Shown here: piece after piece, positions 58,601 to 64,000 of the stretch
How positions within the stretch are numbered: position 1 is the stretch's first letter
How the letters are laid out: every line of letters begins with the position of its first letter
Assembly (NCBI RefSeq): GCF_044324785.1
Contig: NZ_CP172127.1
Reading direction: 5' to 3' (one strand)
Source of the DNA: Escherichia coli
GTDB taxonomy: Bacteria > Pseudomonadota > Gammaproteobacteria > Enterobacterales > Enterobacteriaceae
DNA: 64,000 nt
Position numbers: made by a program

Positions 58601-61600
58601 GTCAATACCAAAACGCTGATGAACCATATTGTATGCATCGTCATAGCGAAGTCCTTTCTTTCCTACCAGCATGTTTACTGCATCGCGTAGCGGTGTTCTT
58701 TCCTCAACAGTGGTTTTCTTTCCTTTTACATACTCGCCATGTTTGCGAATTGAAGGCAGAACTTCTGCTGTTACCCACTTGCGGAATTTGTGCGGGACTG
58801 AACCTTTATTGACTGCATCGCGGCAGCGCAGAACCAATGTATACATACCTGATTCGCTCACAATGCTTAGATTCTGCTCACCACCAAGGGTGTAACTTAA
58901 AGTTACTCCCTTTTCATCGTCATCAAGTGCAGTAAGCGCCTTGCGTGAGTTAGTCAAATCTAAAGCATCACAAACATCTTTAGCTACAAACCACGGCTCA
59001 CCGCACTTGTTGATGACGCGGATTTCACTGTCGCCGAATTTGAAGATGGTGAAATCGTTTTGTGCCTTTGCTATACTTTTCATGTCAATATTTCCTAATC
59101 CGATTTGTTGATGCCGAAGCCCTGACTGTTACAGCAGTTGGGGCTTCAACTTTACGCACCAATGCGCCCTTCCTTCTTAAAGCTTTCCATTACTCGCTGA
59201 TAAATCTCAGAATTAACAGACCGACCATTTTCTTCCGCCACCTTGCGTACCAAATCCAATACTTCTTTAGGCCACCGCAAATTGAACTGTGGCATTTTGC
59301 TCATTCCTTTCATGTTCACCTCACAATATAGGTCCACGGTGGACCTATTGAGAATATAGTAGAGTGCTTCTATCATGTCAATACACTAACTTGGAGTGAT
59401 GGCATGGCTAGAGATGATCCGCACTTTAACTTCCGTATGCCTTTGGAAGTAAGAGAAAAATTGAAATTAAGAGCCGAGGCTAACGGAAGGTCAATGAACT
59501 CTGAGTTATTACAAATCGTTCAGGATGCACTATCAAAACCATCACCGATTACAGGATATCGCGACGAAGCTGAACGCTTGGCTGATCAGCAGGCTGAGCA
59601 GTTCAAGGCTATAGTGTTTGAGACACTTAAAAAGATTTATGAAAAGGATTTGAAATGAGATTTCTATCACTGTTCTTGTTAGCAGTTGTCTCTTCTTCCA
59701 GTGCTGAGCGGCTTTGTTGAATAAATCGAACTTTTGCTGAGTTGAAGGATCAGATCACGTATCTTCCCGACAACGCAGACCGTTCCGTGGCAAAGCAAAA
59801 GTTCAAAATCACCAACTGGCCCACCTACAATAAAGCCCTCATCAACCGTGGCTCCATAACTTTCTGGCTGGATGATGAAGCTATTCAGGCCTGGTATGAG
59901 TCAGCAACACCTTCTTCACGAGGCAGACCTCAGCGCTATTCTGACCTTGCCATCACTACTGTGCTGGTCATTAAACGCGTATTCAGGCTGACCCTGCGGG
60001 CTGCGCAGGGCTTTATTGATTCCATTTTTTCTCTGATGAACGTTCCGCTACGCTGCCCGGATTACAGCTGTGTCAGCAGGCGGGCAAAGTCGGTTAATGT
60101 CAGTTTCAAAACGCCCACCCGGGGTGAAATCGCACACCTGGTAATTGATTCCACCGGGCTGAAGGTCTTCGGTGAAGGCGAGTGGAAAGTCAAAAAGCAT
60201 GGCCAGGAACGCCGCCGTATCTGGCGTAAGCTGCATCTCGCCGTTGACAGTAAAACACATGAAATCATCTGCGCTGACCTGTCGCTGAACAACGTTACGG
60301 ACTCAGAGGCCTTCCCCGGGTTAATCCGGCAAACCCACCGGAAAATCAGGTCAGCCGCCGCCGATGGCGCTTACGATACCCGGCTATGTCACGATGAACT
60401 GCGGCGTAAGAAAATCAGCGCGCTTATCCCTCCCCGAAAAGGTGCGGGTTACTGGCCCGGTGAATATGCAGACCGTAACCGTGCAGTGGCTAATCAGCGA
60501 ATGACCGGGAGTAATGCGCGGTGGAAATGGACAACAGATTACAACCGTCGCTCGATAGCGGAAACGGCGATGTACCGGGTAAAACAGCTGTTCGGGGGTT
60601 CACTGACGCTGCGTGACTACGATGGTCAGGTTGCGGAGGCTATGGCCCTGGTACGAGCGCTGAACAAAATGACGAAAGCAGGTATGCCTGAAAGCGTGCG
60701 TATTGCCTGAAAACACAACCCGCTACGGGGGAGACTTACCCGAAATCTGATTTATTCAACAAAGCCGTGCTGAGCTGCGCGAGCTTCAAACGGGTAATGA
60801 CCTTCTTTACAACATTCAACAAGGTAAAAAGGGTGATGATTTTTCATCGCTTTACATTACTGGATATTTGCGCGGAGTAACTGACTCATTGATACTAATT
60901 GGTTCTCTATGTCCTCCTGATGGCGTTGACATGTATCAATACACCGATATCGTTGAGAAATCTCTAAACAAAAACCCAGAATCAAGAAATGAGAGTGCAG
61001 TTATACTAACCGCCCTAGCAGTAGGAAAAACATTTCCGTGCAAAAAGAATCAATAACAATAAGGGCTTAAAATGAAATTGATTATAGCAATGGCTTTCCT
61101 TGTCTTCTCGTTTTCTGTCTCAGCAGAGTGCTGGGTCGTTGGAGATATGCACGGAATAAGCTATTCAGAACGAAATAATTTTCAACCGGAAGAAGATGGT
61201 TTTAGTGGAACATTCATCATTAAGACAAACGGTGAAGATGCCAGTATCACATATTCTGGGACGGATGCGGGCGGCATGGCTTACAAAGCATTGTCTAAAA
61301 ACTCCATCCTAGGAATTGGCGCGAATGGAGAAACTCAACGCGTTATAGACTCATGGGTAATACATCCTACTGGAACAGTTTTAATGTCAAAAACCATTTC
61401 CGGTTATGGAAATATGGATTCAACCAAAGCTTTTGTTGGAAAAGTAAAAAGAAAATGTTAACGATAGGATTATGGCCCTACATCAACAGCTTCCGCGTCC
61501 CTGAGTAATTCTGTTGCGGATTTGCTTCTTGCGGTGGTTTAAGCTGGAGAGCTTGGCTTCTGCTTCTGATATTTGCGCATCAAGATCTTTAAGCTCAAGA

Positions 61601-64000
61601 TCTGAAAGTCGCTGGTCAAGCAGGGTTTGGTTCAACTCAATATTGTTCAGACGTTCTTCTATGGTCATAACTTTCATCCTATAACTATTTGGAATCAAAA
61701 TGAAAAATATATTAATTGGTTTCGTTTTTGGTGCAGCCTGCGCTGCCAGCATTAGCGTTATCGCCGCCCAGATTGTTGGTGGTAACTCATATCTAATGGG
61801 CTATGACGTCATGATAGATGGAGAGGTTGTTTGCTCAGACCCTTATGTATGGACGTCGACAAAAGAAATAGAATGTGACTAATACCAGCCTGATGGCTGG
61901 TTAATTTTTGCATTTACCTGGGCCATATTGACTACTTATAAAATGAGATCAATATTTAATCGCCCAATAACGGGTGTATGTTGAGGTATATCATGGCGAA
62001 AAAACCAGGTGAAAATACAGGGAAAAACGGCGGAATATACCAGGAAGTTGGTCCACGCGGTGGTAAGAAGGACAATTTTGCCACCGTCAGGGACAACGAA
62101 AGACTTCCGCCAACAACAAAGCCAGGTCATGGCTGGGTATTGGATAAGCGAACTCCAGACAGCAAAAAGTAATAATCAAGCCGGGTCACTCCGGCTTTTT
62201 GATATGTCGCTCGCAGAACTCAACAAGCCTGCTCATTAAGTAGCAGTAAGTCTCGTTGGCTCTTCCTGGTTCAACATCAACACCTACCCTTGAGCAGATA
62301 TCGAATGCCATGTGAGCGCACTCATGGGCAATAGTAGATAGTTTGCCATTGAACACGCCTATCACATGCAAAACACCATTCTCGCTACTCATTGTATGAG
62401 ACGCTCCGTTGGCGTCCGAGTCATGCACGTCAACGCCAAGTTTTTGATGCAGGCGTTGCCATTCTGGAAAGTCTCTACAAAACACAATGGTACCGCTCTC
62501 AAAGAGCGGTACGAGCATCTTTGGTACGTTTCCAATGTTAACTTTTTTCATGGTATCCTGCGCAAAACTAAGGAGGTTGGTGTGAAGAAAAAATTTGTAA
62601 ACGTTGCAAAGTGCGCAATTTTTATATTTTTTATGACCTTTTACGGATTTAGTGCCGGAGAAGGTTTCGATCGTGATGCCAATGCATTCAGTTTCTTTTG
62701 TCTGTCTATAGTGGTCATAATTGTATGGGTGGAATTAAAGCAAACATTGTTTCATGTGCTAGGGAAATAACCATCCATGGCATTTAGTCACTGCTGTGTT
62801 GCCTCAGTGGCAAGCAGCGGTCTGATGGCATTCGCAGCGTTATTCAGCGCTCTTTCATAGGCTGGTGTTCCAGCTTTAGTGTTTGCCAGACGTAAGAGAG
62901 CATTCCTTGCTGCTTTGGACTCATACAAGCGCATGATTGCACCGAAACCAGCCTCAAGTCCCAGTGATACACCAAGGGTTGCAGTTGCGCCAATCGTTCT
63001 AATCCTGTTAGCTTGCGATTGTCCTGTCTGTGTTACTACATTTGCGGCGTCCGACCTTGCTGTTTGCTGTAGAACTTCATGAAGAGCATCAAGCTCTTTC
63101 ATGTGTCTCCCACTGAATATCGTGTTATAGATCTGACCGTCAGATTGCGACTTCAACTTATTTAACTCGGTAAGAAATTTTGTTGGCGAGTCTCCTGCTT
63201 TTTCTGCAATCTTGCTGATATAAGCAGCACGCATAGCGTTCTTTCCATCTTCACTAAGAGCTGGCCATATCCTCTTAATATCTGATGGTTTTCTGCTGAA
63301 TACAACGCTGTTTATTAGCTCTGGAGTAAACTCTTTTTTAGCTTTGTTGAGATTATTCGCAATCCTTTTATTAAGAACCTTATTGAAGACGTTGGAGTAG
63401 TCAGAGTTTGCTTTGACGTATCTGGCGGCCTCTCCAGCCCCCAAATACCGCGCTGCGTTATTCCTCAAATCCGCCCCCATTGCCCTCTCCACGGCATCAG
63501 TTGCGGCTTTCGCGCTATTAGGAAAAACCATGGCATCTCCCTGAATACTTTCCCTCAAGGCTGACCGCAACTCTCTCAATAGACCAAAATCTATATCTGG
63601 TTTAGCAAGTTCTTCTCGCAAATCGGATAACCCGCGAATCAAATCCTTATTTGCCACTTTCCCAAGCCTATTAGCTCTGGTAAGTACGTTGTCGATAACC
63701 TTAATAGATTTTGATGTGTCAACTGGTGTGTCTCCCATTTTGGCTGTAATGTCTTCAATAACGCTTCCGGCCGAATCCTTCCTTGACTTCAGAGAGCCAT
63801 ACAGATCGTCAACAACAACTGATGGGCTATATTCACCATATTTCTCAAGCTGTTTTTTAACTAGCTGACTTCTTTTTGCATACTGCTCAGCTCGCTTTGA
63901 GCCTGTTCCCAGCAAAGCCCCCTCAGCATCCTGAGTAAGACCACGAGTGAAAGCATTTTTCGGCGGGATTACATCAGATGTCATTGGTGTCACGCCCATC

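Follow-up and report, generated by a model that had tools for sequence, protein, structure and literature searches.

Rap1a/Tai4 immunity proteins, described as Rap1a-Ssp1 in Serratia marcescens and as Tai4-Tae4 in Salmonella, Enterobacter and Agrobacterium, form a family in which, to our knowledge, every characterised member neutralises a type VI secretion system (T6SS) amidase. The hex gene of phage 434, named for "heterologous exclusion", shares its P_RM transcript with cI and is what makes Salmonella(lambda imm434) lysogens exclude P22; in addition, spontaneous induction is 30-fold more frequent in lysogens lacking hex, an effect confined to recA+ hosts, RecA-stimulated cleavage of the 434 and P22 repressors is blocked in vitro by the fragment sHex, and overexpression of the full-length protein is lethal (PMC3564112). 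Relatives of both systems are found side by side in a P22-like prophage at the right end of a 64,000-nucleotide stretch of Escherichia coli DNA (RefSeq assembly GCF_044324785.1, contig NZ_CP172127.1), referred to below as the window. The interval 59655-62780 of this window is a mosaic accessory ("moron") region of that prophage, integrated in an Escherichia chromosome. All components come from catalogued families and two of them have named, studied relatives, the region being a new combination of known kinds. Mildly novel is solely a phage-borne cassette, coupled to the maintenance repressor gene mnt, that joins a Rap1a-type gene to a Hex-type gene.

The host genes paoABC in the window are 95-99.5 % identical to those of E. 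coli, and the immI region of the prophage is complete, comprising the tailspike gene, ant, sar RNA, arc, divergent P_ant/P_mnt-like promoters and mnt (Table 1). On the right, the accessory region is bounded by a gene 16-type ejection gene that starts at 62788 on the minus strand. The initial annotation of this DNA had described an accessory region beside immI with six small open reading frames (ORFs), and both the setting and all six ORFs are confirmed. It had seen no assignable function and no characterised system among them. Yet the first, ORF1, belongs to the Pfam family Rap1a, and the second, ORF2, is a homologue of Hex; a seventh gene, ORF G (62582-62770), had been overlooked. The family assignments, the gene order and its conservation, the insertion sequence (IS) in ORF1 and the recombination joints are observations. 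Taken as a whole, a mosaic moron region in which plus-strand genes would serve the lysogen and minus-strand genes would belong to late transcription is, in our judgement, the reading with reasonably good odds.

The coupling to mnt was followed through 22 loci, of which 19 are of the E. coli type (3 RefSeq genomes and 16 IMG/VR contigs), 2 come from Serratia and 1 from a divergent E. coli lineage; IMG/VR was used because a scan of the GTDB species genomes for relatives of Rap1a found nothing. The Rap1a gene lies directly 3' of mnt in every one of the 22 loci, mostly with the same 4-nt overlap as in the window, and the Hex-like gene directly follows it in 20. The divergent E. coli lineage keeps the pair, at 65 % identity for Rap1a and 47 % for the Hex-like protein. 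Upstream, the neighbour of Rap1a is mnt, and downstream it is the Hex-like gene, a second Rap1a gene or gene 16. No amidase effector or T6SS gene stands beside Rap1a in any of the 22 loci, which argues that phages carry it as an orphan immunity gene. E. coli C (CP029371, 4299794-4300785) is one lysogen in which the cassette is intact. The commonest layout is mnt-Rap1a-Hex-gene 16, and since these commonest Rap1a-Hex prophages lack orf59a, the HExxH ORF and the sieA slot, the ORFs of the window do not travel as one module. It is possible, and we put it forward tentatively, that P22-like prophages of Escherichia and Serratia carry an mnt-attached periplasmic two-gene cassette made of a Rap1a-type T6SS immunity protein and a periplasmic Hex. 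A literature search for phage-borne Rap1a/Tai4 proteins or T6SS immunity in prophages returned no relevant paper.

The Serratia prophages show two variants of this layout. In Serratia fonticola (7001-7715 of its locus), two tandem Rap1a paralogues of 112 and 119 amino acids, 30 % identical to each other, follow mnt, the second standing where the E. coli prophages have the Hex-like gene. In the other, from Serratia sp. (7536-10337 of its locus), the Rap1a gene adjoins a gene in the gene 16 position for a 933-residue ejection protein with an SLT lytic-transglycosylase domain.

In the window itself, the first gene of the pair is broken. The ATG of ORF1, at 59655, and the mnt stop share 4 nt as ATGA (59655-59658), as had been noticed from the start, and the IS already recognised in the cluster proved to be a copy of IS903 that interrupts this ORF. 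Its terminal inverted repeats are GGCTTTGTTGAATAAATC, its transposase ORF ends at 60710 and matches the Pfam families DDE_Tnp_1_5 and DDE_Tnp_1, and it is flanked by a perfect 9-bp target duplication, GTGCTGAGC, at 59701-59709 and 60767-60775. When IS903 and one copy of the duplication are spliced out, a continuous ORF ending at 61056 is restored, as had been predicted, with a length of 111 rather than about 113 amino acids. ORF1 is a pseudogene in the window, broken by IS903 at codon 18, and therefore has no product in this lysogen, contrary to the expectation that it would be expressed there. Among 5,426 complete E. coli genomes, 24 have a full-length Rap1a copy and 25 any match at all; the ORF1-IS903 junction was found in none of the complete E. 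coli genomes searched, and no close copy of ORF1 was found in the isolated-phage collection. The window allele has Ser at codon 80, where all other homologues (30 % to 99 % identity) have Tyr, and this Y80S change may reflect relaxed selection after the insertion. A promoter-like site (consensus match only) lies within the Rap1a remnant, at 60926-60953.

The restored ORF1 matches the Pfam model PF18602 (Rap1a) with 52 bits (gathering cut-off 27.7) and an E-value of 1e-13 over the full profile (positions 1-90 of 90), precomputed PF18602 hits exist for six of the six relatives found, and RefSeq lists the intact allele, WP_001211768.1, under the name 'Rap1a/Tai family immunity protein'. In the PDB, the sole sequence relative is Tai4 of A. 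tumefaciens (6ijf), with an E-value of 1.7 for the single sequence and of 0.026 for a 7-sequence profile. Both cysteines of 6ijf align with C64 and C107 of ORF1, which are invariant in 7 homologues. The signal peptide read from the sequence is MRFLSLFLLAVVSSSSA, with the cleavage point before E, and Sec-dependent export to the periplasm is predicted. Thus, ORF1 resembles the described Rap1a/Tai4 systems in its full-length PF18602 match, its size (about 90 mature residues), its Sec signal peptide and its conserved cysteine pair. It differs from them in lacking an adjacent amidase effector or T6SS gene, in being carried by a prophage with its start overlapping the mnt stop, in its great sequence distance and, in the window, in its inactivation by IS903.

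The second gene of the cassette encodes a homologue of 434 Hex over its full length. Profile-profile alignment of ORF2 with 434 Hex (hhalign) gave a probability of 99.85 % and an E-value of 1.3e-30 over 124 aligned columns, and tblastn against phages matched residues 1-129, at 29 % identity, to the gene directly after cI in 434, Sf6 (gp38), HK633, HK446 and Sf101. An exhaustive HMMER search recovered 94 cluster representatives of the Hex family, nearly all of about 127 amino acids, which share a signal peptide and two cysteines, one lying two residues inside the mature chain and one at the C-terminus. The only residues invariant throughout the family are C20, G28 and G123. In 44 members, C20, the first mature residue, is invariant and C129, the last residue, is present in at least 90 %, a pair that may form a disulfide, and the ORF2 model is a predicted closed barrel of eight strands. 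Searches of the PDB with the ORF2 sequence, alone or as a profile, found nothing. ORF2 had been described as MliC/PliC-like, an assignment that fails on sequence: the profile search gave no Pfam hit for it (E <=1) nor for 44 relatives (E <=0.01), unrelated barrels (NspA, NHBA, Cap15, avidins) score higher, and the 'SGxxG' motif is not conserved in the family.

In 434, the hex start and the cI stop share 4 nt, and hex follows cI directly both there and in Sf6. ORF2 stands behind mnt-Rap1a, no terminator-like site lying between. Thus, both genes are in a repressor operon and ORF2, too, would be expressed in the lysogen, whereas they differ in that ORF2 lies in immI behind mnt, usually after Rap1a, and 434 hex lies behind cI. 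The identity of the two proteins is just 29 %, and the predicted export of ORF2 departs from the published cytoplasmic model. Since 434 hex has been defined genetically as an exclusion gene, the homology makes a superinfection-exclusion role for ORF2 plausible.

Several other settings of Hex-like genes were seen. Salmonella phage Emek (2501-2890 of its locus) has a gene 88 % identical to ORF2 alone in the sieA slot beside gene 16, not behind mnt, so a Hex-like gene can sit at either end of the accessory region. The contexts of distant family members include a prophage end, a small-ORF array, an islet near Tse2/Tsi2 and a tad locus, with neighbours that lack Pfam families. The array is a long same-strand series of genes for proteins of about 100-200 residues without known domains, and the islet places one member 1.5 kb from a pair of a Tse2-like ADP-ribosyltransferase and a Tsi2-like protein. 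These two settings are reminiscent of orphan-immunity arrays, which is suggestive, not decisive.

Where Hex acts is the point at which the best of the alternatives has to be weighed. According to it, the Hex-like protein works in the cytoplasm, where it would bind the C2-type repressor of the prophage, damp RecA-stimulated autocleavage and so stabilise lysogeny, exclusion being secondary. The induction phenotype of hex-minus lysogens and the protection of the 434 and P22 repressors by sHex speak for this view (PMC3564112), as does the occurrence of the Hex-like gene in the repressor (mnt) operon of a P22-like prophage. The sequences point elsewhere. A canonical signal peptide occurs across the whole family, the terminal cysteines are conserved (with the likely disulfide) and the barrel is of a type typical of secreted proteins. 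The 434 Hex ORF itself (158 amino acids, 2429-2905 of its locus) has a canonical signal peptide, M25-S42, with predicted cleavage between TSANS and ECW. The stable, active fragment sHex spans E43-N103, and E43 is the first residue past that signal peptide, which makes the sHex start coincide exactly with the predicted signal-peptidase site. The lethality of full-length overexpression is what would be expected if the export machinery were jammed, and the published study never considers export, the terms 'signal', 'periplasm' and 'membrane' each having 0 occurrences in it (PMC3564112). Because of the sHex start, the conserved terminal cysteines and the barrel model, we infer that the Hex family is periplasmic and that the periplasm is the more likely site of its exclusion activity. 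The cytoplasmic explanation is in our view unlikely.

If both proteins are periplasmic, the Rap1a-like and Hex-like proteins might instead form an exclusion pair, the Rap1a fold inhibiting the peptidoglycan-degrading protein of an incoming phage and the Hex-like protein blocking the ejection channel. The model for such an arrangement is Spackle of phage T4, which inhibits the gp5 lysozyme. Downstream of mnt, the two genes are inherited as a pair and have diverged in step in 20 of the 22 loci, both stand close to the genes for ejection proteins and to the sieA slot, T6SS effectors are absent from the vicinity, and in one related prophage the gene 16 homologue bears the SLT murein-hydrolase domain mentioned above; in addition, Hex excludes P22 (PMC3564112). 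Set against these points, the Serratia prophages have Rap1a alone or as two paralogues, without Hex, while Hex works alone in phage 434, and no virion enzyme of the NlpC/P60 type was identified here. Moreover, family knowledge and the Pfam description agree that the characterised Rap1a/Tai4 proteins neutralise T6SS amidases. We therefore regard an exclusion pair as quite unlikely, and retain separate roles for the two proteins, T6SS immunity for the one and phage exclusion for the other, as the tentative reading of the cassette.

The cassette and the two ORFs that follow it interrupt a transcription unit known from other phages. Homology to P22 begins at 61881, and since the hairpin at 61884-61901 follows mnt directly in P22 and HK620, Rap1a, Hex, ORF C and ORF D have been inserted in the transcription unit of mnt, ahead of its first terminator. 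Among 4 homologues of ORF C, there are 22 synonymous and 3 nonsynonymous codon differences, a ratio indicating that this putative coiled-coil gene is under strong purifying selection. RefSeq calls its longer versions 'XhlA family', but the XhlA model (PF10779) gives 12.5 bits against a cut-off of 34.7, covers positions 2-47 of 67, and a hydrophobic tail is missing. ORF D is absent from ETEC1747. ORF C and ORF D had been presented as a divergent functional pair, which found no comparative support and is rejected, because ORF D is missing where ORF C is present and their strands belong to different inferred expression programmes. Signal-like N-termini, from which several of the ORFs had been called secreted, are indeed visible in ORF1, ORF2 and the 60-residue ORF D, and the secretion of all three is a prediction from these N-termini.

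From 61881 to 62584, the window shares 96 % identity with P22, with HK620 and with many relatives, the corresponding P22 segment lying beside sieA; this part holds orf59a, a bidirectional terminator, the HExxH ORF (ORF F) and P_sieA. The initial annotation had placed all six ORFs in the position of sieA, which is wrong for orf59a and ORF F, since that identity makes them P22 backbone. Its wider proposal was a new superinfection-exclusion or anti-phage module, with the HExxH protein and the small upstream ORFs as a toxin/peptidase-regulator pair. The ORFs are small, several have signal or membrane segments, and they adjoin immI; no defence family in the PADLOC library matches any of them convincingly (it returned nothing but coiled-coil noise, with ORF C), which leaves room for a novel system as far as that library goes. 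However, two of the ORFs fall into the named families Rap1a and Hex, and P22 and HK620 have the HExxH gene and orf59a at 96-98 % identity. Paralogues of the HExxH gene are found in late operons, away from these neighbours, and the commonest Rap1a-Hex prophages, as described above, do without orf59a, ORF F and the sieA slot. A joint module is thus very unlikely, and the HExxH gene is instead a backbone gene on the strand of the late operon. Of the superinfection-exclusion idea, what survives is a plausible role for ORF2, by its Hex homology, and for the unlisted ORF G, by its position.

Differences between orf59a in the window and in P22 comprise 11 synonymous and 2 nonsynonymous changes. The copies of the window, P22 and ETEC1747 are intact, and the HK620 copy ('HkcD', 2612-2791 of its locus) has an internal stop. 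A likeness to YjzC (PF14168) had been suggested for this ORF; the model scores 18.7 bits, below the cut-off of 25, with an E-value of 0.002.

ORF F is homologous to HkcC of HK620, Orf-129 of ST64T and gp70 of epsilon34 (phrog_1365), with 99 % identity to HkcC and 38-40 % to the proteins of ST64T, epsilon34 and phage L. The gene is also intact in P22 (AF527608 / NC_002371, 13861-14223), with one amino-acid difference. The P22 reference records annotate no coding sequence for it and label the interval only as mnt terminator and sieA promoter. ST64T and mEp044 have paralogues placed between the genes for lysis and those for terminase, and a paralogue is also present in epsilon34 and phage L; because such copies occur elsewhere, in the late operons of ST64T and mEp044, the gene is independent of its neighbours here. 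The HExxH motif that had drawn attention to it holds up well: H76-E-C-x-H80, N99-E100-T101 and four cysteines are invariant in 19 homologues, down to 43 % identity, and 34 synonymous differences face 5 nonsynonymous ones. The invariant N-E-T of ORF F follows the HExxH motif exactly 20 residues past its second His, the distance that separates H146 from E166 in thermolysin. In this, ORF F resembles gluzincins of the thermolysin type and minigluzincins, and E100 would be the third zinc ligand. The AlphaFold2 model (mean predicted local distance difference test, pLDDT, 84) has the order strand-strand-helix-strand-strand-helix-helix, a predicted topology that fits a zincin core, and phmmer gave a weak match (E 0.09) to the neutral protease (M4) of B. 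cereus that spans both motifs. The model has no significant fold match in the PDB. In this respect ORF F differs from gluzincins and ImmA/IrrE proteins, to which it has no significant fold or profile match, and its four invariant cysteines are not a zincin feature. The check for DUF955/ImmA (Peptidase_M78) that had been proposed for this ORF gave no Pfam or NCBIfam hit at E <=1. Because a confident model lacks a significant structural neighbour, 'minimal gluzincin-like zinc protein' is a description at the level of motifs, and the protein is probably a minimal zinc-binding, gluzincin-like enzyme of lytic growth.

The sieA position comes after this backbone segment. Window, P22 and HK620 are identical through P_sieA, the AAGGAGG ribosome-binding site and the GTG start, except for mismatches at 62561-62562, and diverge completely from the next base. 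After the shared GTG, P22 encodes SieA, HK620 and ETEC1747 encode the 109-residue HkcB, and the window encodes ORF G. Cassettes are thus exchanged at this position behind a promoter, a ribosome-binding site and a start codon that stay fixed, and ORF G, not the six ORFs listed before, is the positional substitute for sieA. It shares with the sieA/hkcB slot the promoter, AAGGAGG and GTG and is, like SieA, a predicted inner-membrane protein, but it is much smaller than SieA (164 amino acids) or HkcB (109 amino acids) and has no sequence similarity to them: BLASTP against P22 SieA gave only E 0.28 over 27 residues, and ORF G is unrelated to HkcB too. By its position, a superinfection-exclusion role for ORF G is plausible.

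Expression timing, like cellular location and all biochemical activities, we infer, in this case from P22. As Berget, Poteete and Sauer reportedly found in 1983, the antiterminated late transcript of P22 extends from the genes for lysis and head, by way of gene 16 and immI, as far as gene 9. In P22 lysogens, transcription of mnt and sieA runs the other way. The plus-strand genes of the window lie in or behind the mnt operon, and no terminator comes before 61884. When the P22 pattern is applied here, mnt, Rap1a, the Hex-like gene, ORF D, orf59a and ORF G on the plus strand would be lysogenic-conversion genes expressed in the lysogen. ORF F and ORF C, on the minus strand like gene 16, arc-ant and gene 9, would be read in the antiterminated late transcript.

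In the working that we propose, an intact Rap1a-like protein would act as an orphan periplasmic immunity protein that guards the cell wall of the lysogen from Tae4/Ssp1-type T6SS amidases of competitors, and the Hex-like protein, a putative secreted beta-barrel, would act in the periplasm on incoming phage. ORF D, a presumably secreted or membrane-anchored peptide of 60 residues, would come next, followed by the terminator and then orf59a. ORF G, a predicted membrane protein driven by the conserved P_sieA, ribosome-binding site and GTG, would be the positional analogue of the DNA-entry blocker SieA. The region would thus be a stack of independently exchangeable envelope-protecting cassettes, interleaved with two accessory genes of the late strand.

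A number of points weigh against this picture. The phage Rap1a proteins are far in sequence from every characterised Rap1a/Tai4 protein, and no cognate effector was found for them. In the window the first gene is dead, destroyed by IS903, which may be polar on the Hex-like gene and lower its expression. The published mechanism of Hex is cytoplasmic (PMC3564112) and conflicts with a periplasmic role. The coding signal of ORF D is weak, with 7 synonymous and 4 nonsynonymous differences, and the promoters and terminators are consensus matches only. That the region is decaying junk, recombination remnants without selected function in this strain, would agree with the broken ORF1 and its Y80S change at an otherwise all-Tyr position, with an IS903 junction seen in no complete E. 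coli genome and with the internal stop in HK620 orf59a, but is highly improbable given the strong excess of synonymous over nonsynonymous differences in ORFs C, E (orf59a) and F, the intact ORFs 2, F and G, and a gene order kept across genera.

The coordinates of the region and of the adjoining prophage genes are collected in Table 1. Just beyond the tailspike gene lies a gene for a hexapeptide-repeat acyltransferase (55045-55716, plus strand), probably an accessory gene for O-antigen modification. About 2 kb off the prophage end, in host DNA, is a gene for the specificity (S) subunit of a type I restriction-modification system (52375-53493, plus strand).

Table 1. Features of the accessory region and its surroundings, with positions in the window.
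Feature	Position	Strand	Basis or remark
Tailspike gene	55736-58105	-	P22 head-binding domain, pectate-lyase-like domain, weak endosialidase-type C-terminal match
ant	58205-59083	-	immI gene
sar RNA	59085-59151		Rfam, 65.6 bits
P_mnt/P_ant divergent promoter-like sites	59348-59381		Consensus matches
mnt (maintenance repressor)	59404-59658	+	Pfam Arc 98 bits, Repressor_Mnt 44 bits; P22 annotation
ORF1, Rap1a/Tai-family gene, 5' fragment (codons 1-18, most of signal peptide)	59655-59709	+	Sequence, reconstruction
IS903, 1057 bp	59710-60766	+	99.6 % identical to copies in HK022, P7 and O276
ORF1, Rap1a/Tai-family gene, 3' part	60776-61056	+	PF18602; phrog_3870
ORF2, Hex-family gene, 129 amino acids	61072-61461	+	434 Hex homology; signal peptide; predicted 8-stranded beta-barrel
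ORF C, 61-residue coiled coil	61483-61668	-	phrog_7586; match to residues 29-89 of an 89-residue ORF
ORF D, 60 amino acids, N-terminal hydrophobic segment, two Cys	61700-61882	+	phrog_37095; variably present
Hairpin terminator	61884-61901	+	Homologous to tMNT directly after mnt in P22 and HK620
orf59a of P22 (ORF E), 59 amino acids, HK620 'HkcD'	61993-62172	+	93 % nucleotide identity to P22
Bidirectional terminator (t_mnt / tORF59A of P22, HK620)	62178-62197	.	
ORF F, HExxH protein, 121 amino acids, HK620 HkcC homologue	62186-62551	-	
P_sieA-equivalent promoter and AAGGAGG ribosome-binding site	62521-62581	+	Alignment; P22 annotation of P_sieA
ORF G, 62 amino acids, two predicted membrane helices	62582-62770	+	phrog_21338; 100 % identical in E. 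coli ET479
Gene 16-type DNA-transfer (ejection) protein, 3' part	62788-63999	-	P22 gp16 homology; RefSeq 'DNA transfer protein'

The significance of this particular window is limited, because its Rap1a gene is dead and the remainder belongs to phage families already catalogued. Still, the P22 reference annotation omits a conserved 121-residue HExxH gene, and the predicted export of the Hex family, if confirmed, is a useful correction; were Hex periplasmic, the published cytoplasmic RecA/repressor mechanism of 434 Hex would need to be revisited. If the reading of the cassette is true, phages carry orphan T6SS immunity, and lysogeny would confer resistance to the T6SS amidases of competitors. 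A temperate phage would then repay its host with protection from T6SS attack and from rival phages, out of the same operon that keeps the prophage repressed, and interbacterial and antiviral defence would be linked on one mobile element.

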